Source of the DNA: Carcharhinus longimanus
Taxonomy: Eukaryota
Reading direction: 5' to 3'
Assembly: GCA_030264375.1 (NCBI GenBank)
Contig: JASCQW010000001.1
Coordinates: 81,563,275-81,627,274 of the forward strand
DNA: 64,000 bases
Program-made: the position numbers and the translations under genes
In this document: in pieces, positions 14,471 through 41,519 of the stretch
Layout: every line of letters starts with the position of its first letter
Position numbering within the stretch: the first letter of the stretch is position 1
The notes under the pieces: model-generated
Seen by the model: the letters and a program-made list of their open reading frames with translations, nothing else
What the model was told of the DNA's origin: nothing
The model's database searches: none

Positions 14471-15059
14471 ATTACCCTTGAGAAGGTGATGGTGAGGTGC
14501 CTTCTTGAACTGCTGCAGTCCTCATAATGTAGATACATTCACGGTGCTGTTAAGGAATCCACAATTTTAACGCAGCAATTGTGAAGAAACAACATTATAT
14601 TTCCAAATCAAAATGGTATGTGACTTGAAGGGAAGCTTGCAGATGGTTTTACTGCCCAATTTCTTCCTGGTGGTAGAGGTTGCAAGGTGCTGTCAAAAGA
14701 TTATTAGTATGTTATTGCAGTACACATCTCAGATGGTATACACCGTTACCACTGTACATTGGGGTTGCCAATCAAGTGGGTTGAATTGTCCTGGATCGTG
14801 TTGAGCTTCTTGAATGTTTATTCATTCAATCAACTGAAGCGTATTCCAACATACTCCCTGACTGGTGTCTTGTAGATGGTGAATAAGCCTTGGAGATTCT
14901 AGAGATGAGTTACCTACACCAGACCTTTGTCTCTATAATGTTCTTGAAGCCACAAATTTAACATGGCTGGTCCAGTTAAATTTCTGGTCAATGTTGCCGC
15001 TCAGAGGATGTTGATAGTGGGAGCTCAGGTTAGACTCTCCCTTGTTGGAGACTGACATT

Positions 15060-15145
15060 AAAAGACAAAATGCTGGATCTACTGAGATTTTCCAGCATTT
15101 TCTCTTTTGGTTTCAGATTCCAGCATCTGCAGTAATTTGTTTTTA
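15060..15145. repeat. Short Penelope-type terminal-repeat element with exact 14-bp TSD
   Basis: TGGAGACTGACATT at 15046-15059 and 15146-15159. Internal inverted AAAATGCTGGA/TCCAGCATTTT. Confidence 0.85.
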
Positions 15146-16359
15146 TGGAGACTGACATTGCCTGGCACTTATGTGGCACAAATGTTACTTGTCACTTATC
15201 AAACCAAACCCGAGTATTTTCCAGGTCCTGCTGCATGTAAGCACAGATTGCTTCATTATGAGGACTCATGAATGAGACCGAATGCAGAATCATCAGCGAA
15301 CATCCTCATTTCTGACCTTACAGTGAAGGGAGGGTCATTAATCAAACAGGTAAAGACGGTTGGATATGGAACACTGTTCTGAAGAATTCCTGCAGTGACG
15401 TTCTGCAGTTAAAATTAATGTCCTTCCCAACAACCACAGCCACCTTACTTTATGCTAAGTATGACTCAAACCATTGAAGAGGTTTTTCTCCTGAAATCCT
15501 GTTGACTTAAATTTTAAAAAGGCTTCTCGATGTCACCAATGGTAAAATACTGTGAGGACATCAAGGGCAGTTAGTCTCAACTCATGGTTGGAATTCAACT
15601 CAAACTTAAAACATTAAGTGAAGTGATAAGCAAACCAAGGTTGTAATGAGGTTTGGCCCCAAGTGCTCCCAGCAGAATCCAAACTGAACATCAGTGAGCA
15701 GTAAGTCCTGCTTGTAGCACTGTCAACACCTTCCATCACTATGCTGATGATTGAAAGTAGATGTTGGGATGAGTTAAATTTGTCCCCCTTTTTTGTGGGC
15801 AGGACATCAGCAATTTTCCACATGGTTGGATAGATAGCAGTTTTGTAGCTGTACTGGAACAGCTTGGCATGGTTTGTGACTCGTTCTGGAGAACAAGTCT
15901 GTAGCCCTATAGCCTTAGCTGTGGCCAGCATGTACAGATATTTCTTGATATCATGTGGAATGAATCAAATTGACTAACACATCTGTAATGGGGGGGATTT
16001 CAGGATAAAGTTAAAACGGATAATCTACTGGCATTTCTGACTGAACATGGTTGCAGATGCTACAGCCTTATCTGTACACTGATATGCAGGGATCTACTCT
16101 CAGGATGGGGATATTTGTGAAATCTGTTTCTTTTGTTAGTTATTTAATTGCCAACAGTATTCATCTGGTAAGATTGCAGAGCTTTGATCTCATCTGTTTG
16201 TTCAGGGATTACTTAGTTTTTTTTCTATAGCATGCTGCTTCCATTGTTTAGCATGCCTAGAATCCTGTGTTGTAGCTTCACCTTATTTTTAGGTAAGCCT
16301 CGTGATGCTCCTGGCATTCACATACACTCCTCAGTGAGCCAAAATTGGTTGCTTGGCTT

Positions 16360-16464
16360 AAACAATATAAAAACAGAAAATGCTGCACTCAACAGATCTA
16401 GCAGCATCTGTAGAAAGAGAAACAGTGTTAACTTTTCAGGTTGGTGATCTTTCATCAGAACTTA
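16360..16464 (-). repeat. Short hammerhead-bearing element, family A
   Basis: Minus strand reads AGTT-CTGATGA-A-AGATC-ACC-AACCT-GAAA-AG-TT-AAC. A 13-bp TSD GGT(TG/CA)CTTGGCTT differs only by CpG decay. Confidence 0.75.
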
Positions 16465-18229
16465 GGTCACTTGGCTTGAGGGTAATGGTAGAAAGAGGAA
16501 TATGCTGGGCTATGAGTTACAGATTATGGCTGAGTACAGCACAGTGTCTACTGATTACCCACAATGCCTCATGGATTATTGAGCTGCTATATTGTTCTGA
16601 ATCTATTGCATTTAAAACTTTGATAGTGCAAAACAACATAGTGGAGGGTTTCCTCAGTGTGGGGGAGCGACTTAGTTTCCAAGAGGCATGTGAGATGGTC
16701 ATTTTTACCAATACTACAGACAGATGCACTTTTGACAGTTAGACCCACAAGGGCAAAGTCAACAAGGATTTTTCCTTACACTGGTTCCCTTATCACCTGT
16801 CTCAAGCACAATCTGGCACATATAGACTTTAGAATTCTGCAAGCTCAGTCAGTCGTGGTGCTATCAAATCACCCTTGGTAATGGATAAGGTCATGCACCC
16901 AGATTCTGTTCCGTAATACATCAAAGTACAGCAGATACTGGAAATTTGAAATAAGAAAATACTAGGAATACCCAGCAGGTCAGGCAGCATCTGTAGTGAA
17001 ACAGGTTTAACACACTACCCCGAATATGGCTGGTCCACTGGAAGCACAGACTGACCGAAGGTGGCAGGTTAGTGGTGTACAGTTGAGAGGGTGTAGCTTT
17101 GTGAGTTTTCAAAATTGGCTCCGGACTCCATAAAATCTCATGGAATCAGGTCAAACATGGGCAAGGAAACCTGCTGATTCCAATGTGCCATCATCCCTCA
17201 GCTCATGAATCAGTAACCATCCACATTGAAAGGAAGAGGCAAAGTGATGAAAGATGTTTTTGACTGTATTAAGTAAGACTTACTGCTCTTGATAGAGACA
17301 TAGTTGGAAATGAAACCAGTCCCCCATACATACGAACACCTTTCTTCAGCATAAATTTAACTATGGNNNNNNNNNNNNNNNNNNNNNNNNNNNNNNNNNN
17401 NNNNNNNNNNNNNNNNNNNNNNNNNNNNNNNNNNNNNNNNNNNNNNNNNNNNNNNNNNNNNNNNNNCTCTCAACTGTACACCACTAACCTGCCACCTTCG
17501 GTCAGTCTGTGCTTCCAGTGGACCAGCCATATTCGGGGTAGTGATAATTCGGGGTAGTCTGGGACATTGGCTATAAGGTATGATTCTGTGAGTTTGACTA
17601 GTCTATGGGAAGTTCCCCCAATTTAGGCACAAGAGGCAGATGTTGGTGAAGAGAATCTTTTGCAAGTTCAACTTTGTTGTATTCAGTGCCCAGACTGATG
17701 CTGGTGATTCATCTAGTTGAAATGGAAATACTACTTATCTGATGTTTCCATAACAGTTTAATGCAACTGAGAGCATCACAAGGCCATTTCAGACAGCAGT
17801 TAAGGATTAATCACCTTGCTGTAGGTATGGAATCAAATGTAGGTTAGACAAGTTAAGGATAGTGTATTTCCTTCCTTGTAGGACATTAGTGAACTAGATC
17901 CATTACAGCAATTTGTTATTGAGACTATTTTTTATTCCAGATTTAATTTACTGAACTCAAATTTTCCAGATTACTCTAATCTCCGCAATACCAGTCCAGT
18001 AACATTATCACTATGCTGCTATTCCCACAAGATTTTTTTTGCATGAAAAACTGTGGACATAAATCTGTCCTACCATTCCTTGCTGAAAATTGCTATATCA
18101 CGATATTGTCAGCTGCTTTAATTATGTTATTTTACAATTGCTAAGGAGAAAATTGTCCAGAAGGAAAACTAAATATATTTGCAAGCTTCTGATGAGTTGT
18201 CAAAGAGAGGAGATCATTGAATTTAATAG

Positions 18230-19270
18230 AAGTAAAAAAATGTAAAGAAATAAATAGGTCCTAAGGTAGACAAATCTCCATGAACTGAAGATTTCCACCC
18301 CAGCTACTAAAAGTGAGGAAATTGCAGGTCAATTATTTCAAAGTTTTAGATTTCAAAGTTGTACCTTGCGATTGGAAAACCCCATTGTGACCACATTATT
18401 TAACAATTCATAACATAAGAACATAAGAAATAGGAGCAGGAGTAGGCCATCTAGCCCTTCGAGCCTGCCCCACCATTCAATAAGANNNNNNNNNNNNNNN
18501 NNNNNNNNNNNNNNNNNNNNNNNNNNNNNNNNNNNNNNNNNNNNNNNNNNNNNNNNNNNNNNNNNNNNNNNNNNNNNNNNNNNNNTGCTGCGTCTGCTCT
18601 ATCAAACCATTCTTTTCTAGGTGCCTCGCTATTTCTTCTTTGATGACGGATTCAAGCATTTTACCAACTACAGACTTTCAGAAGGGAAAAACTAGAAAAT
18701 GTACCTGCCAGTTTAACAAGCACCTTGGGGAAGGGGCTGGAATATCACTTGGATGAATATTACGTGTGGATTTGTGAAAGATATGTAACACCTGATTAAT
18801 CTAGCTGAATTTTTTGAAATTTTTCAGCAACATTCTCCCTCCAGTTTATTTGTGGAATACATGGGCATTTATTGCAGTCCCTTTTAGTTTTTTTACACCA
18901 CTGCACGTGCAGTATAATTTAGCAGGACCGATCCATGCACAGTTTGGTTGGGGACTTTTGATCTGAGAGGGAATAACTATAGTCATAAGTATTATGACTA
19001 TGGGTAGTATTCTATTATTGTCAATAATTAATGCATGTGGAATTGAAGGTAACATTATAACAAGGGTTGGTAATTAGTTTGGCAGGAGGAAACAATAGAG
19101 GCCAAGTTACAATATATTGAAGATGGAAATCGATAGATGTCTAAATACTAAAGGCACCAAGGAAATAGCAAGAGTGGGAATATTGCATTGAGATAGATCA
19201 GCCAAGATCTTATTGAATAATGGAATAGGCTTGAAGGACTAAATGGTTTATTCCTGCTTTCTATGTTTTT
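18230..19270. mobile_element. Nested CR1-type LINE fragments (both strands, with gap)
   Basis: KVDKSP..D.FHP..LK and LESVIKEEIARHLEKNGLI motifs, (CATAAGAA)n tail on minus, and a 3' tail near 19200. Confidence 0.7.
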
Positions 19271-19436
19271 ACATAATGTACCCGATATGCAGGATGTGAT
19301 GAATGGTATTCAAGAAAAACTGAGGCATTGATTTTTCACTGCATATATCTATAACTCAGATGAAGTACTGGAATGTTGTTGACCTAGGTTAACAAATGAG
19401 GCAGCACAAATGGATTGGAGTAGGTTAGAGAAATTG

Positions 19437-19752
19437 ACATGGCGGTGCAGTTGTTAGCACAGCTGCCTCACAACTCCAGAGACCTGATTTCAATTCTGAC
19501 CTTGGGTGACTATCCGTGTTGAATTTGTATGTGCGCCCAGTGCCTGCATGGGTTTCCTCCCACACTCCAAAGATGTGCAGGTTAGGTGGATTGGCCATAG
19601 TACATTGCCCCTTGGTGTCCCAAGGTGTGTAGGTTGGGAGGATTAGCAAGGTAAATACACAGTGTTATTGGAATACGGCCTGGGTGGGTGCACTGTCAGA
19701 AAGTCAGTGTAGACTTGTTGACCTCCTGCACTACACGGATTCTATGATTCTA
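19437..19752 (+). mobile_element. V-domain SINE (HE1-like), CR1-type tail
   Basis: tRNA head, V-core GGGTTTCCTCCCACACTCCAAAGATGTGCAGGTTAGG and (GATTCTAT)n tail. Confidence 0.85.
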
Positions 19753-19996
19753 GATTAAATGACAAGAGTGGAGAGTGTGATTTTTTTTTCCCCATTATCT
19801 TAAAAAAAATCTCCATGTTCATGTTAGAACATTCCATTGCTTTTCTCAAAAAGCTTGGCAATTTTTTCACATTCTTTTAAATCATCATAATCCCAGATGA
19901 GGAATGGGGGCAGAGCTTACTGGTGATGATTTAACCTGAGGATCACCACACCTCACATAAGGGACAAAGTTGAGACGGTAGGGTCTTAATAAACAA

Positions 19997-20094
19997 TCCA
20001 AAGAGAAAATGCTGGAAAACATCAGCCGGTCTGGCAGCATCTGTAAGGGCAGAAAAAAGCTGATGTTTCAAGTCCAGATGATCCTTTGCTAAAA
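19997..20094 (-). repeat. Short family-A element (degenerate hammerhead) inserted in a tRNA-SINE
   Basis: 12-bp TSD CTTAAT(A/G)AACAA at 19985-19996 and 20095-20106. Body is homologous to the 16360 and 24725 copies. Confidence 0.75.
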
Positions 20095-20379
20095 CTTAAT
20101 GAACAACATGAGTCGGTATGGAAATTGAACCTGTACTGTTTCATATTCTACCTGTTTTGTGAATGCATTCAGGGTTGTTTTTTTTTTAATCTGAAGAGAT
20201 AATTTGTTCTTAGTTTATTTTTGTTCTTACATTTCAATAATTAATGGCTTTTAGGTCTTTTTAATGGCTTGGTTCAACCGCAGTTAGACTAACAAGGACA
20301 CTGATTGGTCTTCTATAGGTCTTTCCATTGACTGGGCAGGTTCCCATTCTGGATTTCTTCTCCCCAAAACTCAAATCAC

Positions 20380-21480
20380 CGGAATCCCAGGCGAGCAACG
20401 GGGCAGAGCTGAGCAATAAATTTGCTTCTTCCTCGGGGCAGAATTCCTCAAACATATCGGACCATCTGTCGACCGTAGAAGCCTGCGCTAGGGGCCGATA
20501 AACAATAATTGACAAGCTGAGACTGGAACTACACAGCTGACCCTGCCCTCCCTGCTTACACAAACGGTCCACTCTTCCACAAACTTCCGGCCAGCACACC
20601 AACATTCCAAACACTTCCGCTTTCAGCCGCCACCACTCTCGCGCACCAACAGCAAACCTCAACCAGCCACCACTCCCAGCATGCTCCGAGGTCACCAACC
20701 GGAAAGAGACACGTGTCAGTCCGACGCCGTGGAGCGCTTAGCCCTCCCCCTGCAGGCGTCGCAGGGAGTGTACTTGTCATGAGACCTCTAAATTCTTTTA
20801 ACTATTCAAATAGCGTTGCCGTAAATGTTTGAAAGAACAATTGTTTTGCCGTACGTTACATTCAAGTTCCATTATTAGGCGGCATTATGAAGTTATAGTT
20901 TAGATTAGGCGTTGACTCCGGTGAGCTTTGTCACTACCACCACCGACCTACCCGCATCCAGCTGGTGCGAGAGATGGTGGCGAGTTTGATAAGGCAGGCG
21001 CGACCCCCTTGACGTTGCCATGGCTACGGCGCGTATCCGTGTGTGTGGGCGTGCGCACACAGGAGGAGGAGGAGGGCAGATGGCGTACATCCGGCTCCGG
21101 TTTCTGTTCCTCCCCCTTCTGGTGACGTGCTTGTTGGTACTGGATCAAAACAGTGGAGCAGAGGCGCAGCCCGGGGGGGGGAAGGACCGGCTGTAGTGGC
21201 GATTCTGAGAGCGCGAGCCCGGTAAGAATGTGAGCCCGGAGCGTTCTGACAGATGTTGCAACGCTGGCGTCTCGTTGTCTTTGAGGGACAAGTGGGGGAT
21301 CCAGTTGGAAAGCGGGTCGACTCAGGAAAAGGAATGTGTGCTGCAGGCAAGAGCTTTCAAAACAAACCCCGGTCGCATCTGAAGGGATTCCAGATTATCG
21401 ATGTCTCTGATGCGGATGTTGTTGTAGATATCTCTGTTAATAGCAACGTTACCATATTTCCGGGATCCGACTAGGTCATC
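20380..21480. promoter_or_regulatory. CpG island / SMIM14 promoter (possibly bidirectional)
   Basis: Only strongly CpG-rich stretch in an otherwise CpG-depleted window. It contains ETS-type ACTTCCGG (20583-20590) and ACTTCCGC (20613-20620), E-box CACGTG (~20710), RFX X-box-like GTTGCCATGGCTAC (21014-21027), TGACGT half-CRE sites (21010, 21123) and YY1-like AGATGGCG (~21078). Confidence 0.85.
21050..21221 (+). other. SMIM14: SMIM14 putative non-coding exon 1 (5' UTR; start approximate)
   Basis: Lies in the CpG island and ends at a good donor CCG|GTAAGA (21221|21222). The first coding exon has an acceptor upstream of its ATG, so an upstream UTR exon is required. Confidence 0.65.
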
Positions 21481-24400
21481 CATAATGAGACATTGAAGTT
21501 GGTGCCCGGTTTTATTTATTTTTAACCGGTACCTCAGTTTCTTATCATTGAGACTACCTCCGCACTTGGTATTGCTTGTTAAAAATTGATGAAATAAGTT
21601 ATTTTTTTAAAGCTTGTCTCATAGATTTCTCAGTTCGTCGTTCTCTTGATTAAAGACCGATGGTTTTACATCAAGGCTGTGTTGCTCAATTGTATATTGA
21701 TGGAGACCATCAATGCATAATGTTTTTCTTGCCGTTTTGATGAGTGTTTCTGTATGTGCCGGTCAACATAGTTCTACTTCAGCAATGTGCGAAGTTAAAT
21801 TACCATATTATTTTGTGTACTAATTCTGCATCATTTCACGAACTTAAAACTCCGATCTAGCATAGTACGAAGGAGTAACATAGCTAAGAAATAGTAACAT
21901 CTTGAGTCCGTTTAGAAAGTAGATTTGAAGTACATGTGGTGAAAGTCATTCATTTTATTCAAATATACTTTCGACAGGAAAGTATATTTATAAATAGAAT
22001 GCCCCAAAATTTGCATAACCGTGCAGCTGTTCTGAAAAGCTTCTTCATCTAACTTGCATTTTTATGCACAACAGCTCCAATGTTGAGATAAATACCTACA
22101 TTTACAAAAAATGAAACTAAACTTATCTTTCATGACCATGGAATATCACATGGCATTTGCTGCTAGCAGAATACTTTTTGAAGTGCAGTTGCTGTTGTAA
22201 TGCAGGGAAGCATGACAGATAACCTGCACACAAGACCCCACAACATAAAATTAAATGAATACCAGGTAACCTGTTTTAGTGACGTTGCTTGAGAAATAAA
22301 ATGGCTGGCCTGATTGAAAATTTAATTGCATTTTTTTTGAGGAGTTAAAAAATAGATGAGGGCAGTACAGTTTATGATGAACTTCATGTAAGGCTTTTGA
22401 TAAGGTCCCACTTGGACGACTTATGAAGTGAGTAAGAGCCCGTGGGATCCATGGCAGTTTGGCATTTTGGCTATAAAATTGGCTTCGGGGCAGGAGACAG
22501 AGGGTGATGGTCAAAGGTTGTTTTTGTGACCAAGTCCTAGAATTCCCAACTTTACAGCATTTTCACCAAACATTGCAGTGGTTTAAGAAGTTAGCTCACC
22601 ATGACCTTCTGAAGGACAAGTGCCAATGGGCAATAAAAAAAACAGCCTGGCCAGTGTGATTTATGTCCCATTAATGAATGAAAAATGTTGGCATGGCAAT
22701 TGTATGGGAAAGTGGGACAGAATTTGGGCAGTTACGTTATGGGTATTTATGGAGGATGACAGCAAGGGAGACATTACATAATTCAGTCTGGCATTAACAA
22801 GAACAAACATAGACAAAGGTTTCAGTAGAAGAGGAGTGGAAATATAGACAGAGATGGATAAAATCCCAGAAATAAAATTAGGTGCTCTTGGTGATGAATG
22901 AAATTGAAATAATTTTCTACAGCATACAAGCTACCTGACTTAACAGTTTGGTCAAATGTGAACAAATGCTTGGAGAAGGGAATGGAGTCAGTGACAAGGG
23001 AGTAAATTTATGACAGGGGTGTCAAAGCAATGACTTCAGTCTTGAATTTGAGTTGAAGAAATTGAAATCTTCAACGGCTTGATATCAGTGAGACATCTGC
23101 CACTGTGGGGTTGAGAGAGATGGTTCAGCATAGGGTGTGTGTCAATGGTGTACATATGGAAGCTATCCCTACATCTGTGGACAGTGTTGTGAAGTGGCAG
23201 CATGGAAATTTATGTCAATATAGATCCTTGGAGGGCTCCAAAGATGACAATGCAAAGGGTAAAAAGGGAAAACTTTGCTGGAAATTTGGTGTCCAAAGGC
23301 TATCGTTACCAATATCTAATTTTATGATCCATGTGTTCCAGGAATATGACTTTTAGTTCAGGATTTTTTTAATGTATAAATGAAGACACCTGGTTTGAGA
23401 AGCTGGTAAACAAACCTAAAGTGAATGCAAATCAAAGGTTGTTCTATGTATGTTTAATATGGTTAAATTGGAAACTAAACAATGTGCATTGTTGGTGTAA
23501 AAAAAAAAGTATCATGGTGGAGATGGAATGCATTAAATTCCAGAATGGGGGTTTAAATTATTTGTATGGTTCCTAGAACAAACAAAGTTTAAGAATTGAA
23601 GGTAATTAGTTTAAATCTCTGAAACATGTTAGGTGTGCCACTTTTCCATGGGAATTGATTGCAGGGTGGTGTGCTTTACATTTATCTGGATGAGTTTCTC
23701 ACAGAAACAGACAGCTGAAGAGTGGTCAAGAGATGTAAAGCAGCCGGAACCAGTAGCAGAGGACTATCAGAAATAGGGGTTTTTGATTTGATGTTGGTAA
23801 GCAAGAATGCAGTGGGGGTTGAACTGAGGGGCCCACAAGAGTAATGTGTTGAAAGAGAGTTGGAGAGTGTGTCTAAATTGATGCTGGTGGAAGAACCCCA
23901 AGAAATCTTATACCTCAGCGAATAGCGTGAACATTGAAGGGAATCAAAGGGAATTCCTTAGAGTTGTGGCATACCTTGGTTTGGTTCCAGGAGAAGTGGA
24001 AGAAACTTCAAGATACTGTAAAGTATAGGGGAACACCTGAGTGGAAATAAAAGTATAACAAGGAATATGCAGCTGAGATTTTGGTTTTTAATCTATTAAA
24101 AGTTATGAGATATAATGTTAAGTTACTAGTACTTTTTTTTGTTTAAGACATGGAATCTTGTGTTCATTCAATTAATAAATGTATGGTCACATTTCTTTCA
24201 CAATGTTACTGGTCTCTGGATACCAGATAGTCATAGTTTAGAAGGAGTTGATTTCTTTAAATTTATTTAGGGCAAGTTTTTGTATCAATATGTAGAAGGT
24301 CCAAAAAGTGATGGAGCAGCACTGGGTCTGGCTCTGGAGAAAGAAGCCGCACAAGTGTTCAATGTCTCAGTGGAGGAGCATTTTAGCATTAACAATAACA

Positions 24401-24724
24401 CTGACATCCAGTTGCCCTCTTCTTTCCCCCCTCCCATCACCACCACTGCCAACAACCCAAGGAGCCCCAAAGCTAGTTAATTTTTTTTAAAAATTTTACT
24501 CCATCCTTAAAGCTACAAAGCCAGTGCTCAGAATGGACTGGGCAAACCCAAATCCTTGCTTGCTCCAAAAGCCAAATTCAAAATTGAATCCGGTTTATGA
24601 CTCCCAAAAGAGAGACAAACAATATCTGAGCTGATAAGATAAAGCATTGCACCCCATTTTGGACTTGATCTGACGCTTGATCTTTACCAAAGCTATTAAC
24701 TTCAAGCAGAGGAGAAACTTGAAC

Positions 24725-24822
24725 TTAAACAGAAAATGCTGGAAAATCTCAGCAGGTCTGACGGCATCTGTGGAGAGTGCGAATAGAGCCATTTTGAGTC
24801 TGGATGATCCTTCATCAGAGGC
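24725..24822 (-). repeat. Short hammerhead-bearing element, family A
   Basis: Minus strand reads CTGATGA-A-GGATC-ATCCA-GACTC-AAAA... followed by CTCTCCACAGATGC.GTCAGACCTGCTGAG. Confidence 0.75.
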
Positions 24823-25179
24823 CTTGGATGCTGTGGGGAGGGGAGTTGCATTGAAACCAATTCAGTCAATTAGCAACCCATTTTACATAAGCTTATTTTC
24901 ATCAGTTTAAATTAGTTTCACCTCTAAATTGTTATGAAACTTGGTCAATATGCTTGTATCCGTTCCAGTGTTAAACTATGTGCAATTTGCCAAGTAATGA
25001 GTGATGTAATTTTGCAAATCTTGGACTACAGGACATGCTACCTCTATGTCTTTTTATAGTATAAATTATAAAATACAGTTTAATAGACATGCTTGTTGTA
25101 TTATCTGCTCAAACGGGGACGGGGGGGGGAAACTTGCTCAAAACTTCTATTAAATAAGTTGCTATGAACAATGAGCAGT

Positions 25180-25311
25180 CTGAACAAAAACTGCTGCTGG
25201 AAACCTAAAGTAAAAACTAGAAATGCTGGAAACATTCAACAGATCAGGCAGCATCTGCAGAGATGGAAATTGTATTCATGTTTCAGGTTGATTTCACTTT
25301 CATCAGAATTG
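25180..25311 (-). repeat. Short hammerhead-bearing element, family A
   Basis: Minus strand reads AATT-CTGATGA-AAGTG...AACCT-GAAACATG, with the same body as other family A copies. Confidence 0.7.
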
Positions 25312-26441
25312 GCGGAATAGCAGAGTAATCTTAATGTTGTCAACATCATGAGTTTGTTGTGGCAAATGGGGTGAATCCATATAGTCTACACAGCACACTA
25401 TCATTTTATTAAAAATTGAAGTTGCAAATTGAATATTGAAAAATGGAATATTGCAAGTAAAATCTGAAATGTTTACACTTGAATCAGTCTACATCACCAT
25501 TTTTATATTTTTAAAAATATGTCAAATATATTCTTGGCACTGTGCGTGTGCGTCAAGAGGAAATATCCTCCTGGTATCCACCTATCAAATCGGCCCAGGA
25601 TCGTATATGGTTCAATAACATTGCCTCTGATTCATCTAAGTGTAATGGATATAGGCCCAATCTATTCACCCTTTCTTCATAAGCCCCTCATCACACAAAT
25701 GAATTGAGTGAACATTCTCTTAATTATTTCTAATGTCATTGTATCTTTTTTCAAATAAGGTGACAAAGCACCTAAGTCCTGCAGTCTCTCTTCATTTATG
25801 TAATGGTACTCCTTTTCTATTTTCTATTTTTTTTCTTATGAATAGGATGAATAAACTATTTGCAGCAAATCAACAGGTGCACAGCAAGGAAAATATTGTA
25901 ATGAAAATTTTTTAAAAGTTACCTGTCGGTTATTTGTATCTCATTAAATATCTTTCTCATTTGACAAAGATTGTATCACTGTCACATTAATCATTGTAAT
26001 TTGTATAAAAAAAACTAGTTTCAGATTGACATTTATATTGACTTCCATCACCTTTTAACCCATGGAAGTGGTGGATGCAAACAAAATGAGACAGGGTGGG
26101 ATTTTCTGGCCACACTCACCCCAAAGCTGGAAAAACCCGCCTGAAGTCAGTGGACCTTTGCATGGTCCATGTCCCACCCATAGGCAGGCATTCCTGTGGC
26201 AGGTGGGACTGGATAATCATCAGCTTCACTTCGAGTTAGCAGATTACCTAAAAGATCTAATTATATTGAAATACAAAATATATGTGAAGATTAAATATTC
26301 TGAAAGATTTGCATCCTAATAGGCTACACATTAAATTTATTTGGAATTATAAGTGACTAATTGGCTGAATCATGGGTCTTGTGTTGTGTTCCTATTGTTT
26401 CTATTATAATTGTTCTCATTGCCTTAATTACTAGAGACTAG

Positions 26442-26555
<114 letters not shown>

Positions 26556-26662
26556 TAATTATTATTTAAGTAAATAAACTTCCGTAATTTAAAGGGATGG
26601 CAGGAAGATTTAAAGTCAAAGCTTAATACAATTTTTCTCTGGATTTAAAAAAGGAAAACAAC

Positions 26663-27240
26663 GGTCGGGATTTTGCACCCCCCCCCACTCATTTGTTGTG
26701 GGTGCAAAGTGTGATAGGACGAACAAAATCTCACAAGGAGCTGAAAATGAGAATTTCACTAATGAGATTGTCCCAGTCATTGATATAACATAGTTCATGC
26801 CCAGGAAGGTCAGGAACCTAATTTAAATATATTTCGATATCAGCGATAGGCTTCCCTACTGTACAGTCTCCCAATATTTGGTTATCCCCCCTCACTGACG
26901 TGACATCATGTCAGCGAGGCTTACAGTAGTCTGCAGCAACATGAACCAGGTGAAGAGAACCAGCCAGGGACACACAGGTAAGTACATTCCTGAGGGATTG
27001 TGGGAGCGGGACATGCCCTGTTTCTGTAGGGAATGGTGTGAGTGATCTCCATGCCCATAGAAGGGGAGCTTGGTTTTTATCTTTAGTGCTGTGAGATTGG
27101 GATGCCCTATTTCAGTGTGACAGCACCTCCAACGTTCTTTCTCTGAAAGTGCTGTAAAATATGGCAGGAAACGCCGGCAGTGGAGCACATTGCTTCTCTC
27201 ACCTGAGCCAGCATTTTGAAAAAAATTTAAAATAATGCCC
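26663..27240. mobile_element. Non-autonomous Harbinger-type element (MITE-like)
   Basis: Begins GGTCGGGATTTT and ends AAAATAATGCCC. Subterminal sequence resembles the left end of the 7016 element. Confidence 0.5.
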
Positions 27241-27631
27241 ATTCCTTTTATATAGAATCTTATCTATTAAATTTGAAATGTAACCACTCTTATGGGGGCA
27301 AATGTAGCAGTCAAATTTTCAGAGTGCAGTCGTATGAACAGAAACAGAATCACAGAATGGTTATAGCACAGAAGGAGGCTATTTGCGCCATTATGTCTAT
27401 GCTGACGTAGCTCATCTGGTGCCCTGCCACCTTCTTTGTGTAGCCTTGCGCATTCTTTATTTTTAGCTACTGAATGACCAATTATTTTTTGTTTTGGTAA
27501 TGTTGACTAAGAGATGAATATTGGCCAAGATTTGGGAGAACTCCTTATTCCTCTACAGATAGTACCTTGTATTTCTTTTTATTTGCCTATATCTAATTGA
27601 GCAGGCAGATTGGTATCAGTTTAGCACCTAT

Positions 27632-27853
27632 ATGCAAAACAATATCTGTGGGTGCCTGAAATAAAAATAGAAAATGCTGAAAAAACTGAGGCGGTCTGGC
27701 AGGATCTGTGGAGAGAGAAAAATAGTTAACTCTGAAGAAGAGTCATATTGGACTTGAAATGTTAACTCTCCACAGATACAGCCAGACTCCCTGAGTTTTT
27801 CCAGCACTTTGTTTTTAATTCCGATCTCCAGTCTCCACAGTATTTTGCTTTTA
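27632..27853 (+). repeat. Palindromic family-A element with a central hammerhead core
   Basis: ~90-bp inverted arms flank CTGAAGA-A-GAGTC-ATATTG-GACTT-GAAA-TG-TT-AACT (27732-27767). Confidence 0.8.
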
Positions 27854-28499
27854 CCTCTTGAGTATCTGTCTGGTCTGTATCTCCTGGAATGAGGGCTTGA
27901 ACCCTCTCTCAAACTTCTAACTCGAAGGTGTAAGTATTATCTAGCTGGCACTTAATGAATGAACTTAAGATATTCACATTTAAGGATACTGTAGTATTGT
28001 AGATAATAGATTTTTAAAATAGTCGTGCAGCTTTTATTATCATGTGGCACATTTTTGTTTTAGATTTCCTTTTCTTTCTTTCACCTTTCACTATGATGCC
28101 AAATATCACACTTCTTATTAAGACGACTAGTCATGAAGACCCATGCCTTAAACCTTTCATAGCTGTCATAAATGTTGTCCATGACCAATGTATATGTTGC
28201 TATAAGGTAGTCCTGCTAGTTTGCAGTTTTCTGAAGAAAGCTTCTATCAAAAATGCAACATTCAAATTTCTATAGAGGGTGAGATTTGGACCATAGGCAT
28301 CAGATATGTTTCCTTAGAAATATCTCCACAGTGTCAACACTATCAATTGACTGAAATTTAAAAGAAGATCTTTTATGCTATCTTCACCATTCCCGTTGTT
28401 TTGTGTTCCATGGCACTGTTGTCATTTAATCTCTTCTGCCCTTAAACCTATCCATGACTTTCCATTCTGCTGCATATGCCTTTCACCCCTTTATTCAAT

Positions 28500-28650
28500 G
28501 ACATAAAACATCTCCCTCAGTCCAATATGACTTTTCTCTGAAACTAATGTTAATTCTGTTTCTCTTTCTCCACAGATGCTGCCAGATCTGTTGCATTTTT
28601 CCAGCATTTTCTGTTTTCAGTTCTCCAGCATAGCAGTATCTTGCTTTTGT
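28500..28650 (+). repeat. Family-A element body
   Basis: CTCCACAGATGCTGCCAGATCTG...TCCAGCATTTTCTGTTTT is homologous to the other copies. Confidence 0.7.
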
Positions 28651-28737
28651 CATTGTGGCATTTATAGGGCCCTGCTTGTTCTCGCTTGCTCTCGTGCTCC
28701 ATGCCTACTGTCTTCAGCCTCAACAAGTTGGGTGATT

Positions 28738-29090
28738 GGAGATGGTGGCATATGATATTGTCACTGGACTAGTTACCTAGAGACCCAGGGCAGCATCTGG
28801 GTTCAAATCCCACTAAAGCAGATTGACAACATTTGAATTCATTAAAAAAATCTGGAATTAAGAATCTAATGATGACTAAGAAGCCGTTGTCAATTATGGT
28901 TAAAACCCATCTCGTTCACTAATGTCCTTTAGGGATGGAAATCTGTTATCCTTACCTGGTCTGGCCTACATGTGACTTCAGATCCACAGCGATGTGATTA
29001 ACTCTCGAAAGCCCTTTGAAATGGAGGGCAGTTAGGAATGGGGAATAAGTGCTGGGCCAGCCAATGACTCCTACATCCCCTAAATAAATT
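28738..29090 (+). mobile_element. tRNA-derived SINE sharing core and tail with the 13015-18026 LINE
   Basis: A-box-like TGGCATATG, B box GGTTCAAATCC, core GTTCACTAATGTCCTTTAGGG...GGTCTGGCCTACATGTGAC and tail GGGCAGTTAGGAATGGG.AATAA. Confidence 0.75.
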
Positions 29091-29179
29091 TTTTTAAATG
29101 CTTGCAACAGGGGAGTCTTCTTTCCACTTCTATCTAAACATGTCTATCAGGATTACATGCTGTTTCTGAATATTCAACT

Positions 29180-29445
29180 TTTTTTATTCATTTGTGGGAC
29201 ATGGCCATTGCTGGTGGCTAACATTTATTGCACATCCCTAATTGCCCTTGAGAAGGTAGTGGTGAGCTGCCTTTGAGAAACACAGATATAACTGAGTGGC
29301 TTGTTAGGCTATTTCAGAGGGCAGTTGAGAATCATCCACATTGCTGTGGCTCTGGAGTCACATATAGGCCAGACCAGGTAGAAAAGTAGATTTCCTTCCT
29401 TCAAGGACATCTAGTAATAATATCACTATGCCATCACCTCCCCCA
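29180..29445 (-). mobile_element. Second copy of the same SINE (internally deleted), tail-to-tail with the 28738 copy
   Basis: Reverse-complement homology of head, core and tail. Confidence 0.75.
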
Positions 29446-30319
29446 TAATCTGCACTTTTTAAAAAAAAAGTTTTTTTTCCACTGCCAGAACCAAATAAGA
29501 GAGAGAGGATTTGGACCAGAATAGGTGTTAATAACAGAATAAAGGTCAGTACTGTTGAAAGCAAAACATGAGAACAAGATACAGACTGACACTAAGGGTT
29601 TAGTCGTGCAGGGCAGGGTGGGGGGAGAATGTAAAATGGAGAGCAGAGTTCTTGATCTGAAGTTGTTGAACTTAATGTGGAGTTCAGAAGGCTGTAAAGT
29701 GTCTAATCAGAACATGAGGTGCTGTTCCCCCAGTTTGTGTTTGGATTTTTCATTTTATTTCAACAGAGATCTACATAAGCAAATGTGCTAGAGTAAAAAT
29801 ATACTTGTAACTGAATGTTTGACATTGCCTTCTGTACGATCTTTAACCACAGAGGGAAGAAACCAAACTGTTGGAGTTAATTAAATAATCATAGTTCTGC
29901 GGTGAAATAATTTAACTCAGGATATACATATATATATGAAGGTTTAAGCAAATGAGGAACTGAAACATGTAAGTTGCTAATTACTTTCCATGTTTCTTTT
30001 CAGCTTGGAGTAAAAACTTTGTTCCTGTAATATATGTCCTTGTAAATCTGCAGTGAATTCTGGGGGATTATTCCTAATTCAGAATAAAATTTAAATCAGT
30101 TATTTACCGAATTGTTAGGACTAGGAAGTAAGAGATCAACAGTAGGCTAATCAAATGCTCCTGAATTTTAACATGATGAATAATGTGATGGAACTTGTCC
30201 AACATTTGTCTTCCTGGGTTAGTATTCTGCAAAATTTCTGGAGTGCTTCATCTGTGCCTTAATACTAATGTTACCGTTGAGTTAGAATAAACAAAGGAAA
30301 AAAGATAAAGGATCAGATG

Positions 30320-30920
30320 TTACACCTCCTGTCATTGCTTGGAAGGATGCCCTGGGAAGGGGATGAGCTGCTAGGGGTGATAGAGGAATGGACCAGAGTG
30401 CCAGAGGAAATAGTCCATTCAGAATGCTGACAAGGGAGGTGAAGGGAAAATATGTTTGGTGGTGGCATCATGCTCGAATTGATAGAGATGGCAGAGGATG
30501 AATACAGAGGCTGGCGGGGTGAAAAGTGAGGAAAACAACATGGTCTGGGAGGGAGAGGGAAGGGGTGAGGTCAGAACTGTAGGAAATGGGTCAGGCACAG
30601 CGCGGTGGGAGGGGGAGGGGCAGGTGGAATCCTTGGCTGAGGAAAAANNNNNNNNNNNNNNNNNNNNNNNNNNNNNNNNNNNNNNNNNNNNNNNNNNNNN
30701 NNNNNNNNNNNNNNNNNNNNNNNNNNNNNNNNNNNNNNNNNNNNNNNAAAATGAAGACCTTTCAGAAGCAACATTGTGGAAGGTAGCATCATCAGAACAG
30801 ATGCGACGGAGACAGAGAAACTGGGAGAATGGAATGGAATCCTCACAGGAATGAGGATGTGAGGAGGTGTAGTCGAGATAGCTGTAAGAATCTGAGAGCT
30901 TATACTGAATATTGGTAATG
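30320..30920 (-). mobile_element. Penelope-like element RT C-terminal remnant
   Basis: Minus-strand translation YK..DSYSYLDYTSSHPHSCEDSIPFSQFLCLRRICSDDATFH is typical of the Penelope RT thumb region. Confidence 0.8.
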
Positions 30921-31307
30921 CATCATAGTGGTTGACCTATACATGCTACTGGGTTCTTGATACAATTTGAAATGCCTTCCGAGAAGATATTCTGCCAATG
31001 AAAACTGGTGGCCTGTTAAATTTAGTTTTGTTTTAAAAAATACTCATTCATGCCCCACAAAAAAAATGCAATCTCTCCCATCTCTTCCTTTCCACATTGG
31101 AACCATACCTGAATCCTCATCCCCATTAACTTAATTTAAGAATATTTACAATAGTACAATTAGAAAAATGAAAGTTTTTTTGAATGGGCCAAAGTAATCA
31201 AAACATAGGGCCGAAATTCTATGGGGATTTTATTGGTTTTCTGTTGTAATTTTGGTAACTTTTTGGTGGTGGTTGTGGTGGGGGGGGAGTCACAACAGTG
31301 ATGGAAT

Positions 31308-31408
31308 GAACAAAAACAGAAAATGCTGGAAACTCTCAGCAGATCTAAGAGCATCTGTGGAGAGAAAATAGAGCCAACCTTTTGAGCCAGAATGACCCTT
31401 CGTCAGAT
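31308..31408 (-). repeat. Short hammerhead-bearing element, family A
   Basis: Minus strand reads CTGACGA-A-GGGTC-ATTCT-GGCTC-AAAA-GG-TT-GGCT, with the same body. Confidence 0.75.
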
Positions 31409-32799
31409 GGAATGAATATGGCCATTCACATTTCTTCTCTGTGGGCTCTGACGGTCTCCTATAGAAATTACAACAAGAGATCGGTGAAACCCTCGTGAGG
31501 TTTCTGGTCCAAAGATTCCCATCCAAGCAATAAATCACTCAAAGTACATTTGTGCAAAACAGTTTCCAAACATAAAGAAGTATTTACACGGTTTTTTCCC
31601 ATGACCTGAGGACATCCAAATGTCATTTACAACCAATAAAATACTCAAAGTTCATTCCATCACTGTTGTAATTTAGGGAACACGGCACCCAATTTGCACC
31701 AGAAGGTCCCTTAACAGTAATGTAATAATGACCAGTTGATATGGTAACTTTCATGTTGGGAGTTAGTGTGAAGATTTTTGTTTTGATAGGGCAGATTATG
31801 CTATAGGAGTCTTCTGCTGTAGTTAACTACAAGGACATTAACCTGTTTTTTGGTGAGATGATATTCATCCAAGACAGGTTATCACAAACCGGTGAACTTG
31901 TTAACTACTGGAAAACTAATGCTGTTGTTTCCATACCAAAAACTTTCCTAATTCCTCTGTAATACAGTTTTGGTTGAGAGAGCGTGAAAGCTGACATGTT
32001 TCCTCAATATGTGAAAGTAGATTTTCTCAACCTCCTCTTTGACACTCCAGCCATTTCAATATTAATGTTAATTCAGGAAGTGTCTGTGATATGTTGGAAA
32101 CTCAGTGAAGGTTTTTTTTCTTTGTTTCTTATGGTTTTTCACATTTAATTGTCAGGAAATTATTGTAAGTTTGCTGATGAAGAATCAACCAGTTTAATAG
32201 ATTACACAGTTTGACTCACTAGGTTGATCATTATGTATAATTTGTTGTGCATGTTGCAGATTGGATTACTGTGTGGTATTTGAGACTGCACACTTAAGGG
32301 AGAATGTTGAGGCTGATTCACTGGGATATACTGCCTGATATGAGGAAATACACATCTAAAAAGTGGAAAAACTTTTTATGCCTTTCACAATCTTGGTCTA
32401 TCCTAAGGCACTTTAAAGCCAATTAAATACTTTCGAATTATGGTTACTGTTGCAATGTAGGAAACATGAAGAAAGGTCAGGTTATGAGGTTGTGGAATGA
32501 GAGCTGTGACTGAAAAAGTTACCTGTTCAAACGATTAATCAAACATATGATTAAAACAGAGAGCATGTCAACATTTATAAGTAGATTAGATAGTCACTGA
32601 AGGAAAATGAATATATAGATTAATGAACAAAGTGGGAATTTGAGATTATGATTGAAGTGCTAACCTGGATTGGTTGGGTTTGATGATTTGTTTCCTTATG
32701 CTGTAATTCTTTTTGGGACACATGGATGGGTTTTGGAATGGGCAGATTCAGTTTATTGTATAAATGACAAGTCAGATTTTGGAGGAGGGGACCCAGAGT

Positions 32800-33088
32800 T
32801 AAAGTTAATTTATTAGTGTTACAAGTAGGTTTACATTCACACTGCAATGAAGTTACTGTGAAAATCCCCTAGTCACCACACTGACGCCTGTTTGGGTACA
32901 CTGAGTATTTAGCATGACCAATTCACCTAATTTGCACATCTTTGGACTGTGGGAGAAAACTGGAGCACCCGGAGGAAACCCACTCAGATACCGGGAGAAT
33001 GTGCAAACTCCACACAGACAATGACCCAAGCTGGGAATCGAACCTGGGTCATGGTGCTGTGAGGCGGCAGTGTTACCACCGTGCCACC
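32800..33088 (-). mobile_element. V-domain SINE with an alternative (Rex1-like) tail
   Basis: tRNA head with GGTTCGATTCC, V-core and tail TACTTGTAACACTAATAAAT. Confidence 0.85.
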
Positions 33089-33759
33089 TACAGAGGTAAT
33101 TAGAGTGAAAAATTTTCAGTTCAGGATTTGGTCTGGAAATACAATGTAGATCCTGTTTTGAAGGCAAATCCTTTTTTGGCTGAGAGCCTAACTTATTTGT
33201 TAGGGAAAGTATTCTTCTGCCCATTCTGGTTTTACCAGATGAAATGAATGCAAAGGTTACTGGATACAGATGGCTATTAGCAGCAGAGGGCTGGCTGCTT
33301 TTCTCCCTGCGGAAACCATCCCATTGTCAATCAAAATGCCCTTCTGGAAGGGAATTCTCATTCTGAGAGAATGATAAGGAATTTGAACTTTGAAAGGAGC
33401 TTCATGTTTTATTTTTGAGATTGCCAAAGGCATATAGGATGAGTAACGTAATTGATTCAGAACCAAAATTATGGAAGAAGGCTAGTTGATTTATTATGCC
33501 AATGCTAGTTCATGTATTTACTCTCTTTTCCTTACTTTGCCCTCATACTATTAAAATATCAAACTCCCATTTTAAACATGCTTCACAGCGTCTTAATGGC
33601 TATTTGTAATCAATTATGTCTTAGCTATTTGATGAAAAATTCCTTTCTAATCTTTCCTTTTATGCTTCCATTCTCATCCCAACCGAGTTCATGCCCTCTT
33701 ATTGACCTATGAACCAGTGAAAATAATCATTCAAATTTTTAAAAACGTTTTTCATCTCG

Positions 33760-35345
33760 GCCGTAAGAATAAAAAAGCAGATTTTTCCTTAATAAGTGAG
33801 GAACTTGTAAGCGTTGATGTTCAAAGAGACTGGAATGTGCTCACATGGGGAACATAATGTTAGCATGGAGGTGCAGCATGCAATTCGGAAGGCAAATGAC
33901 ATGTTATTGTGAAGGCTTTGGAGTATAAGATTAAATAAGTCTTGCTACAGTTGTACGGGACTTTGATGAGACCACACCTGCAATACTGTGTGCAATTTTG
34001 GTTTCCCATTTGTAAGAAAGCATATATTTGCATTGGAGGCGATAGATTAAAGAATCACTAAATTGCTCCTTGGGATGAGGGGATTGCCTATGATGGGAAG
34101 CTGAGTAAATTGGACTATTGTTCTCTGGAGTTCAGAAGAATGAGATTGAAACCTACAAAATGCTGAAGGACTTGACAGGGTCAACAAAGAGAGATTGTTT
34201 TCACTGATCAGGGAATCTAAACTGCAGGGACACAGTCTCAAGATAAAGGGGAAACTTTAATAAAGGGGCTGAGATGAGCAGAAATTAGTTTGCTCAAGGG
34301 TTGTGAATCTTTGGAATTTTCTACCCCAGAGGATTGTGAATGTTCCAGTGTTGAATACTTTAAGGTTGGGATAGATAAATTTTTTGGTTTGGGAATTAAA
34401 TGACATGGGGAGTAGGTGGGAAAATATAGTTGAAGTCCAAGACCTGGCATGATCATATTAAATGGAGGATCAGGCTTACTGGGCTGTGCGATCTACTCCT
34501 CCTATTTCTTGTGTTCTTCTCAAACTTATTAATCATTTTCAACATGTATGATTGATCCACCCTTTGTTTCGGCTTTCATCAGCACAGCCCTTTAAGTGCA
34601 ATCCTCCCATTCAGTATAATCCTAATGTCGATTCTTTTTATGGTTCCAAAATCATTTCTAAATCTGGCTTCCAAAATCATATATAGATAAATTAACTTCT
34701 TGGCTCAGGGCCATCTAATGGTGTTTGCTGTTAGTTAGATTTGCCCTTGGACATCTAAATTATTCCTTTTTTTAGCACAATAGATTGCTGGAACAAAGAA
34801 AATTACAGCACAGGAACAGGTCCTTCGGCCTTCTAAGCCTGCACTGACCATGNNNNNNNNNNNNNNNNNNNNNNNNNNNNNNNNNNNNNNNNNNNNNNNN
34901 NNCTTCTGCACCAGTCTGCCATGAGGGATCTTGTCAAAGGCCTTACTGAAGTCCATGTAGACAACATCCATTACCCTACCCTCATCAATCATCTTCATCA
35001 CTTCCTCAAAAAACTCAGATCAAATTAGTGAGGCATGACCTTTGTTTCACAAAACCATGATGTCTCTCGTTAATACGTTCACTTATTTTTCAAGTGGGAG
35101 TAAATCCTGTCTTGAAGAATTCTCTCCAGTAATTGCCCTACCATTCACGTCAGGCTCAGCGGCCTGTATTTACCTGGATTATTCTTGCTACCCTTCTTGA
35201 ACAAAGGAACAACATTAGTTATTCTCCAATCCTCTGGGACCTCCCCTGTAGCCAATGAGGATACAAAGATTTCTCTCAAGGTCCCAGTAATTTCCTCCCT
35301 TGCTTATTTCAGTATTCTTGGATATATCCCATCAGACTCTGGGGA
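33760..35345. mobile_element. CR1-type LINE fragments (+ at 33760-34520; - at 34790-35345)
   Basis: [13 protein letters not shown] and DEGRVMDVVYMDFSKAFDKIPHGRLVQK motifs. Confidence 0.85.
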
Positions 35346-39686: not shown

Positions 39687-41519
39687 TGACTTGACAATCA
39701 AAGTGAAAAGAGTGAATAGACTAAGCATATCAAAACTTTTCTTAATTTTAAAAGACTTTATTGAATCTCTTTGTTCTAGAATCCCAAGTGTTTTCAACTA
39801 CACATTCCCATCCCTGGCATCATTCTGTTGAGATAAAAACAAAGTGCTGGAAATACTCATCAGATCTGGCAACATCTATGGAGAGTTAATGTTTTGACTT
39901 GAAAACTCCATTTCTAACCGACTTTTTAGTTGTGGGGGCAGCAATATTATACTCAACCCATAAAATTCAGCCTCGTTTAAAATATTACAACTTGTAATAC
40001 ATTCAGTTGGATCATAGCAGATGTATACTTTGACTCTATTTATCTGCCATTACTCTATATCCCTTGATGCTTTTACCAATAAGTTAATTTGCACGTAACC
40101 ACATTAAATAGGTGAAAGATATAACTTATCCATTCTGTCAGCTAGTCTTCTACTGTCTCTTTTATTTATCAGTCTTATTTTTGTACTATTAATACATTTC
40201 TCTACACCGAAATTCAAATCATTGACCTTGAACCATCACTTCCAACCTTTCTCTATAATTCTTTCTCTTTTCCATTAACCTACTTTGCATTCATGCTACT
40301 GTATTTCTTTGATTTTTTTTTCTGACTGGCCTTTCAAGTGCATCCTGAAAGTTCTTCTAAATTACAATACATTATTCAATTAATCAGTTATTTAACAAAT
40401 AAAACTATTAAATTTGTATTAAGAATTTCAGTCTACCGAACATGACTTCAGGTCGTCAGTCACTCCCTTTAAATAGGTTGAGCATCTTACTTTTGAGAGT
40501 TGACTTGGAGAATTTATTAATGTGGAAAAGTAACAAATGACATTGCCTTGTAATTTGGACCAGATACTTGTGTCTGCTGTATGTGCATTTCTTCAAATTC
40601 TCTGGCAGATTATTTATAATTAGATGAGCCAGTGATCAGAATGACCAGATGATCAGAACCATCAGGCTGCTTTATTTCACTGTAAGGTGAACGTGCAAAG
40701 CAACAGTTATTCAGGTTTGCTTTGTTCAATCATTTGCATTTAAATGCAAACATTTGCATTTAAGCAATTTCACGAAAATAAACTGCTATAGTGTTGCGTG
40801 CAGCCATCTTCAAAACAGTTGACCTGTGTTCAACTCCTGGCCATTGATGTGATATCATCTGTAGAGCACTATCGCACGTTTGTGCTAAATTCTGGCCCCA
40901 CCCAGAGACAAAACTGCTCAAACTATGAATTCTAAGGCATTTAATTGAATGAATTAATGACATATATAAGTTTTTAAAAAAACCTCACAATCATTAGAGT
41001 GATGAAATGCTTTGACCAAAATAATGTACCTTTGTAGGTTTCTGTTGGCTTCAGTTGTAATGGCCATCATTTTTACCAGAGGAGTTATAAATTAAACATA
41101 AACCAGTTTTGAATACATTGTAGCATAAGCAATGCAAATATTAAACAAAGGACTTCATGATGGCATTATACCAGTAGGTGCAGTATGTTTACTTTTAAAA
41201 AAAACACAACTGTGTATATTTTAATTTTTTCATCATTGCTGAAGTTATCATTTTAGTTCCCAAGTCTGGAATTGCGGAAGTGCTGACATATCCACCCAAA
41301 TGTGCTGTAAACTTACCCACCCACTAAGTAAATTACTGCTGGCTAATTTGGAGCCAGTCCCATCAAAAAGCCAATTCACTGAGCATTCAACAAATTGGTT
41401 TTTGTGTACTGTTGGTGTCTTGAGGTTGGCCAACGTGGCTGTCGATGACTGGCATGTTGTTAGGATAAGCTCTGTGTGCTAAGAGATGCAGTAAAGCTTG
41501 GGGCCACTGCTGCAGCCAT

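Follow-up and report, generated by a model that had tools for sequence, protein, structure and literature searches.

A short hammerhead-bearing repeat of Carcharhinus longimanus as the probable terminal repeat of Neptune-type Penelope-like retrotransposons

The stretch analysed here, called the window, comprises 64 kb of Carcharhinus longimanus DNA (GCA_030264375.1, contig JASCQW010000001.1, positions 81,563,275 to 81,627,274) and holds ten loci of a short dispersed repeat, Family A, together with decayed remnants of a Penelope-like retrotransposon. An earlier note on this DNA had read Family A as a separate, non-autonomous, retrozyme-like element that carries a hammerhead ribozyme and is mobilised by Penelope proteins, an interpretation that our analysis supports in part. 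We consider it quite probable that Family A represents the terminal repeat, with its hammerhead, of Neptune-type Penelope-like retrotransposons, and that its short copies are abortive products of reverse transcription that cover the initial 100-134 nt of the element's uncut mRNA. Plain coordinates below are positions within the window, and signed numbers count from +1, the A with which stem I begins on the ribozyme strand.

Results

Family A copies in the window

By using a hidden Markov model (HMM) seeded on seven window copies, we recovered all ten loci listed in the earlier note as 12 arms at E<0.1, two of the loci carrying two arms each, and found no match at E<=10 in the reversed window. 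A second HMM, built on 70 genome-wide copies, gave 11 window matches and none in a 1.02-Mb reversed control. The ten-copy repeat is thus present, but several of its details had to be corrected. The unit is not limited to about 100 bp and reaches 134 nt. The positions listed are mostly element 3' ends on the forward strand, and the hammerhead lies on the reverse strand in five of the six copies that retain it. The consensus drawn by eye assigned the hammerhead parts rightly but blends several subfamilies (S1 to S3, defined below). As a whole, the observation is therefore partly confirmed.

Four window copies are flanked by target-site duplications (TSDs). The best one, a perfect 14/14 (15046-15059/15146-15159), surrounds a head-to-head twin of two 3' pieces (15046..15159, insert 15060-15145) that lies within another repeat and has no hammerhead; its left arm is on the reverse strand and untailed, and its right arm is on the forward strand and tailed, that is, extended to +134. 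A solo S3 copy (+1..+100) on the reverse strand at 16347..16479, also within another repeat, has a TSD of 12/15 (16347-16361/16465-16479); its stem I begins at 16462 and its core boxes are present, with the helix-III C gone and two mismatches in stem II. Again within another repeat and on the reverse strand, the copy at 19985..20106 is a solo S1 unit (~+2/+3 to ~+100) of the U3-A8 core subfamily, with a damaged core and a TSD of 11/12 (19985-19996/20095-20106). The fourth case, absent from the earlier note, is a solo S2 copy (~+5..+103) on the reverse strand at 31300..31418 with a TSD of 12/13 (31300-31312/31406-31418). After deletion of the insert and one TSD, the flanks of the three copies named in the earlier note rejoined to other genomic repeats with 15, 5 and 3 junction-spanning matches, and the 31300 copy gave no junction-spanning genomic match. 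The rejoined flanks support individual insertion of the units into other repeats; the TSDs of these three copies stand, although the copy with the best one is the twin that lacks the hammerhead.

The other loci are more varied. On the reverse strand we found a tailed S3 copy without hammerhead core (16921..17013, +31..+129), a tailed S3 copy with a broken stem II (25180..25312, ~+1 to +129) and a short 3' piece without hammerhead (39830..39886, ~+36/+46..+104). The solo S2 copy on the same strand at 24714..24822 (+3..~+105) keeps its first core box intact, its second box and helix III being damaged, and a search for a junction TSD at this copy found none. At 27632..27858, a left arm on the reverse strand (+31..+133) and a right arm on the forward strand (+4..+134) form a second head-to-head twin; they meet in the palindromic helix III/stem I region, and the hammerhead of the right arm is nearly complete, apart from a CpG-type loss in helix III. 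The 28500 copy, on the forward strand, is a longer S3 3' end (28400..28650, ~-110..+134) that extends ~110 nt upstream into element sequence; its hammerhead is largely lost and it reads as an ordinary 5'-truncated element end. Hammerhead remains were thus located in six window copies (16366, 19995, 24722, 25207 and 31309 on the reverse strand, 27730 on the forward strand), the core being gone at the four loci 15060, 16925, 28500 and 39830. No window copy satisfies a strict descriptor of the intact hammerhead, in line with the earlier statement that every copy is mutated.

A decayed Penelope remnant lies on the reverse strand at 30404..31012. It covers the C-terminal part of the reverse transcriptase (RT) and the linker of the same Penelope-like group, with frameshifts, stops and a 100-N gap. 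Pfam did not recognise the Penelope remnants of the window, which were placed through homology to genomic copies. The 31309 copy lies upstream of this remnant, is not contiguous with it and has its own TSD. At 29566-29766 on the reverse strand, 640 bp past the RT remnant, tblastn weakly aligned (E 5e-5) a piece resembling the parent element's endonuclease end, which may complete that copy.

Abundance and subfamilies

Sampling 120 evenly chosen stretches of 10 kb, with 1.03 Mb of sequence other than N, we counted 90 Family A matches, one per 11.5 kb, which extrapolates to roughly 200,000 copies in the 2.68-Gb genome. Mixture clustering of 120 near-full copies gave three clean subfamilies (S1, S2 and S3, the last being the commonest) and one mixed group; this fourth cluster, "S4", was heterogeneous and was dropped as a reference, its copies being scored against S1-S3. 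Median identity to the nearest subfamily majority sequence is 92% for S1, 87% for S2 and 84% for S3, which indicates that Family A is old, S1 being its youngest subfamily. Several further subfamilies appear among motif-selected copies (L091-L120); their upstream sequences are unrelated, and a pyrimidine tract and YAG still precede stem I.

The unit lies at both ends of Penelope-like coding elements

A 58-residue piece of the RT remnant (30749-30922) retrieved many genomic copies (150 scored of 4708 candidates), from which we defined 69 RT loci, the locus of the window being omitted. In 31 of them, the RT motif is followed by a sense unit at a distance of 700-1500 bp downstream; the same interval holds an antisense unit in two, and the mirror interval upstream a sense unit in two. 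Where sequence and a GIY-YIG match were both available, the downstream sense unit was found in 28/39 loci (Fisher p 2.6e-9). The alignment is unbroken where the endonuclease ends, continues across a pyrimidine-rich stretch and enters the unit. According to tblastn, these loci have the order RT, then C-terminal GIY-YIG; on decayed pieces Pfam gave RVT_1 at E 0.0023 and GIY-YIG at E 0.074, neither of which reaches its curated cut-off.

One decayed element of 3.3 kb, L168, carries the unit at both ends, and no start codon could be placed in it among its many frameshifts. With the sequence just downstream of its 5' unit as a query, we obtained the upstream 500 bases from 38 of 39 other full matches, and in 23 of these 38 loci the unit continues directly into the element body after +134. 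Elements ending in the repeat, which the earlier note proposed to look for, are thus found with the unit at the 3' end (31/69) and at the 5' end (23/38). The position of the unit, the domain order and the linker motif described next likewise sustain its proposal that a Penelope RT and endonuclease are the mobiliser.

The translations of L163 and L145 contain a CX2-5CxxC linker before the endonuclease, a motif that marks Neptune and Nematis and is missing from Penelope and Poseidon (PMC8557442; here and below, cited papers are drawn on in part). A Poseidon-clade label was dropped for Neptune-type on account of this linker. We tentatively chose Neptune over Nematis from the linker motif and from their host range.

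The majority sequences form a predicted minimal hammerhead

The majority sequences of S1-S3 share one layout: stem I (4 bp), a core box, an extra A, stem II (5 bp), a second core box, CG, UH and stem I'. The helix III loop is absent from them, and S1, S2 and S3 each have a palindromic tetramer at the junction. Every subfamily majority sequence has the conserved core boxes and a cleavage triplet; S1 combines a U3-A8 core variant with GUC, and S2 and S3 combine C3-G8 with GUU, with cleavage predicted after +35 in S1 and S2 and after +33 in S3. For S1 and S2, the majority sequence folds into both stems.

To measure pairing, we used 63 copies chosen blind to the hammerhead (7 of 70 listed copies being omitted as mis-anchored or truncated). 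Stem cells are paired in 78.8% of cases, compared to 25-43% with slid partners, and double-change cells number 50 against 27.3+-4.0 in shuffles (0/500 shuffles reaching the observed count). The double changes are found in stem I (CG 28, UA 15), in stem II (GC 26, AU 12) and in the core pair (CG 33, UA 14). Genome-wide, the intact S3-type fixed motif has 40 matches and its backwards control none; stem II is fully paired in 6 of 30 fetched S3-type motif loci. The strict descriptor found one hammerhead in 120 random stretches, six in 30 motif-selected loci, one in 90 and three in 69 other loci, and none in reversed controls. Naturally intact copies include those at L173:1784, L129:2512 and L112:1501. 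Two other searches of the window gave little: an Rfam scan reported no hammerhead at E<=10, as expected for decayed minimal motifs, and a loose core pattern matched 14 times where chance would yield 6.45, which is too weak alone. Together, these data support the prediction that the majority sequences of Family A fold as a Penelope-kind minimal type I hammerhead; both the intact core and the compensatory pairing (stems I and II, core pair) that the earlier reading called for are present in the subfamily majorities.

Outside Family A, a stretch of the reverse strand at 34567-34582 resembles a hammerhead core, its spacer being very short, and may belong to another family or arise by chance.

Copies end at fixed points

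We then mapped copy ends in a second sample of 87 loci, fetched with queries covering +38..+101 (three query loci omitted), in which S1 is thinly represented (2/87). The 3' ends are bimodal, with 49 at +99..+110 and 31 at +132..+134, and the random sample agrees; the main sites are ~+103 and ~+134, the latter corresponding to the known "tail". In vitro, for the anole element PAc, this 30-40 bp tail corresponds to what separates two internal sites of RT start (PMC11167929).

Pooling 133 solo copies, we found 5' ends beyond +37 in 15, at +30..+37 in 17, at +8..+29 in 30, at -5..+7 in 47, at -40..-6 in 8 and further up in 16. The stop rate per base is thus 0.083 at -5..+7, compared to 0.016 at +8..+29 and 0.012 at -40..-6 (p<1e-9). 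At the cleavage site (+30..+37) there is no excess of 5' ends (0.020, p 0.53); a second peak seen there in the first sample (8/69) was gone on pooling. Above -2, the upstream flanks of the 5'-peak copies match the element at chance level, and flank sharing was seen in 0/1035 pairs of these copies compared to 26/105 pairs of long copies, which makes a missed subfamily or a spliced-on exon unlikely.

In the S1 and S2 majority sequences, a TATA-like box stands 30 nt above +1 (spacing counted by eye). It is present in 8/17 long and 2/47 short copies; mostly lacking this box and sharing no flanks, short copies therefore look dead on arrival rather than like templates. The terminal repeat of A. vaga, with TATA and initiator, is a precedent (PMC3846280), and D. 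virilis Penelope has an internal TATA-less promoter (PMC2377424).

At 23 loci where the 5' end of an element could be placed, it lies at +1 in six, at +2 in two, at +7, +10 and +14 in one each, at +62..+100 in five and at -45 or further in seven, two of the last being at -45, just above the TATA-like box. The ends at +1/+2 indicate that long and short cDNAs share one stopping base, and those at -45 or further that partial-tandem forms restore the TATA-like box. Two of the loci (L347 and L363, G000:C27:117.49 Mb and 117.66 Mb) have near-identical upstream inverted tail pieces 170 kb apart, either by duplication or as a recurrent structure.

Head-to-head twins are frequent and tandem arrays were not found

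Head-to-head twins account for 20/89 random copies and 23/87 copies of the second sample, and no tail-to-tail pair occurs among the 89. Exactly one arm is tailed in 18 of 23 twins (p 0.005), none of the 46 arms of the second sample reaches above -2, and a junction TSD was found in 8/23. Inverted repeats with a tail at one end have been described for Penelope-like elements (PMC8557442), and the PAc protein cuts and extends both target strands (PMC11167929). Among 398 unit matches, with 1.81 Mb of the 2.68 Gb covered and a few duplicate loci included, none lies in a tandem array of period >=60.

Other features of the window

The right part of the window belongs to a host gene, UDP-glucose dehydrogenase, with forward-strand exons at 55190-55260 and 59153-59350 (the second matching Pfam UDPG_MGDP_dh_N, E 5.6e-9). 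A second repeat family consists of three mutually similar pieces (36050-36359, 41568-41886, 57405-57734), whose translations resemble what we take to be the GIY-YIG end of another Penelope-like family, Pfam having found nothing in them. An abundant SINE-like family (SINE, short interspersed element) with a tRNA-like start, presumably akin to the shark HE1 SINE, occurs at 6597-6850, 19440-19690, 32880-33090, 39380-39685, 54220-54515, 56900-57120, 59620-59830 and 63760-63855. Duplicates that are 100% identical, of 77 bp (13192-13268/13369-13445/17290-17366 and 17013-17089/17467-17543) and 44 bp (44299-44342/58037-58080), some of them adjoining 100-N gaps, are probably assembly artefacts at gap edges.

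Discussion

We observed that the unit lies at both element ends, that its copies have two 3' ends and a 5' mode at stem I without any mode at the cut site, and that its stems covary. The fixed 5' and 3' end points suggest that the short copies arise as aborted copies rather than from a separate self-copying element. Transcription would start at the first base of stem I, +1. The RT/GIY-YIG protein of the element would nick the target and prime at one of two internal sites on uncut RNA, as demonstrated in vitro for PAc (PMC11167929). When priming falls within the 5' repeat, the RT would run off the RNA end after 100-134 nt and leave a promoterless, dead solo copy; within the 3' repeat, it would give full-length copies or the usual 5'-truncated ones. 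If both target strands were primed, head-to-head twins would result, usually with one arm per start site. The copied RNA would be mostly uncut. The subfamily covariation suggests that the hammerhead was selected in active ancestors, and its cutting would need a dimer or protein help. We are inclined to believe, with modest confidence, that transcription begins at the base with which stem I opens and that in the ~200,000 short repeats Penelope insertion has left a fossil record, solo copies being run-off cDNAs primed internally on uncut RNA and twins the work of a protein dimer whose subunits use different start sites.

Several observations weigh against this reading. The start site is deduced from copy ends and sequence motif, and the 5' ends of older solo copies spread over -5..+7 instead of falling on one base. 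Among elements ending at +1, two loci (L347, L363) look duplicated and four (L341, L347, L353, L363) adjoin an inverted piece, so that the clean independent cases are L359 and L369 at +1 and L357 and L376 at +2. In S3, the box at the same position is weaker and A-rich, a poor TATA; moreover, the RT query retrieved only S1 and S2 parents, and the link of S3 to an open reading frame (ORF) is weak (tblastn matches near L093, L111 and L211). A junction TSD (score >=8) was found in only 8/78 solo copies, compared to 7/600 in the null. As for covariation, the shuffle control ignores relatedness, and the double changes trace back to roughly three events at the level of subfamilies, which affected a single pair of stem I, the first of stem II and the core pair. 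Finally, the pyrimidine tract and YAG ahead of stem I in all subfamilies can be read as an intron acceptor, and in D. virilis Penelope an intron was mapped as ending at helix I's 5' end (PMC4209133).

In that splicing scenario, the AG would be the acceptor, at +1/+2, and short copies would come from spliced RNA. We find this very improbable, as many copies retain the AG or 1-2 bases above it and the flank comparison revealed no common upstream exon. The 5' mode could otherwise reflect plain 5' truncation from the 3' repeat, the RT pausing at the folded stem I regardless of where transcription starts; truncation is usual in these elements (PMC8557442), stems I and II do fold in the S1 and S2 majorities, and the ends spread over a dozen bases. 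However, the RT reaches the stems from their 3' side, so pauses are expected near +25..+39, where there is no excess, and pausing leaves unexplained both the TATA-like box at fixed spacing over divergent spacers and the lack of twin arms above -2. We therefore regard pausing as improbable.

What survives of the earlier idea of a non-autonomous element is a SINE-style source, in which solo repeats that extend above -35, and so bear the promoter, would be transcribed from +1, with the Penelope protein copying them in trans. Its products would look identical to run-off copies; 24/133 solo copies extend above -6, many with a TATA-like box, few S3-linked ORFs occur in the sample, and in A. vaga mobilisation in trans requires no more in cis than the terminal repeats (PMC3846280). 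But short S1 and S2 copies match the ends of coding elements, clustering shows no separate lineage, and coding elements start at the same +1; short daughters, mostly without the box and sharing no flanks, would seed no further rounds. We hold such a source to be unlikely, though worth keeping in mind. A retrozyme proper, whose tandem repeats are cut by the hammerhead into monomers and circles before reverse transcription, is largely refuted for the window and has a very slim chance. A type I hammerhead is present, and animal retrozymes derive from Penelope terminal repeats, one chondrichthyan included (10.64898/2026.07.22.740005); against this stand the absence of arrays among the matches examined, unit boundaries that differ from the cleavage site, and a hammerhead that is minimal and not of the canonical retrozyme form (PMC7229834). 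The separate retrozyme-like element of the earlier note thus gives way to the terminal repeat of a coding element.

Published work already covers the ribozyme and its element class, as well as the tail and the inverted forms. We found no paper on this shark-type family, and none that links the transcription start to the first base of the hammerhead or the short copies to run-off, in a search that Repbase, Dfam, subscription papers and supplements lay outside. The main value of our data therefore resides in the end statistics, since they bear on the Penelope transposition cycle and the role of the hammerhead (PMC8557442, PMC11167929). The copies supply testable coordinates, namely an RNA start at +1, RT starts at ~+103/+134 and a predicted cut after +33 or +35, and their ends argue that the RNA copied in vivo was uncut. 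If the aborted-copy reading is true, the hammerhead would not create the template's 5' end and would act later, or serve as a fold for dimerisation or protein binding. For annotation, short hammerhead repeats may be mistaken for retrozyme monomers or SINEs.

Comparison with known systems

Animal retrozymes lacking long terminal repeats share with Family A a type I hammerhead and a short non-coding unit derived from Penelope (PMC7229834; 10.64898/2026.07.22.740005). They form tandem arrays with one hammerhead per unit and circular RNAs, whereas Family A is without arrays (0/398) and its ends ignore the cleavage site; its hammerhead is of the minimal form, without the canonical helix III and loop 1/2 contacts.

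Family A also resembles the minimal hammerhead ribozymes (min-HHR) that Cervera and De la Pena (2014; PMC4209133) described in the terminal repeats of Penelope-like elements from metazoans. Both have a type I core with a 4-bp helix I, an extra base between positions 9 and 10.1, and a palindromic 15.2-16.2 without helix III loop; both show several consensus families per genome, mostly as single dispersed motifs, with opposite-strand pairs, and the U3-A8 core variant is known there from S. mansoni. Family A differs by its 5-bp helix II and, in S3, by A-U at 10.1-11.1 instead of the conserved G-C. The parts of that paper drawn on name no cartilaginous fish and do not relate copy ends to the motif.

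With the endonuclease-bearing (EN+) Neptune and Nematis elements (Craig et al. 2021, PMC8557442), the parent of Family A shares an RT followed by a C-terminal GIY-YIG, the CX2-5CxxC linker, partial-tandem terminal repeats, an inverted 5' copy and an optional 30-40 bp tail at one end; Family A insertions differ in mostly consisting of the terminal 100-134 nt alone. PAc, a Poseidon element of Anolis (Frangieh et al. 2024, PMC11167929), is of another clade, its ORF starts in stem II, and the parts of the paper drawn on map no transcription start. Like Family A, it has two internal RT start sites that define the tail. Cutting and extension of both target strands, a hammerhead upstream of the start sites and uncut RNA as main substrate, which were assayed for PAc, are what the DNA copies suggest for Family A.

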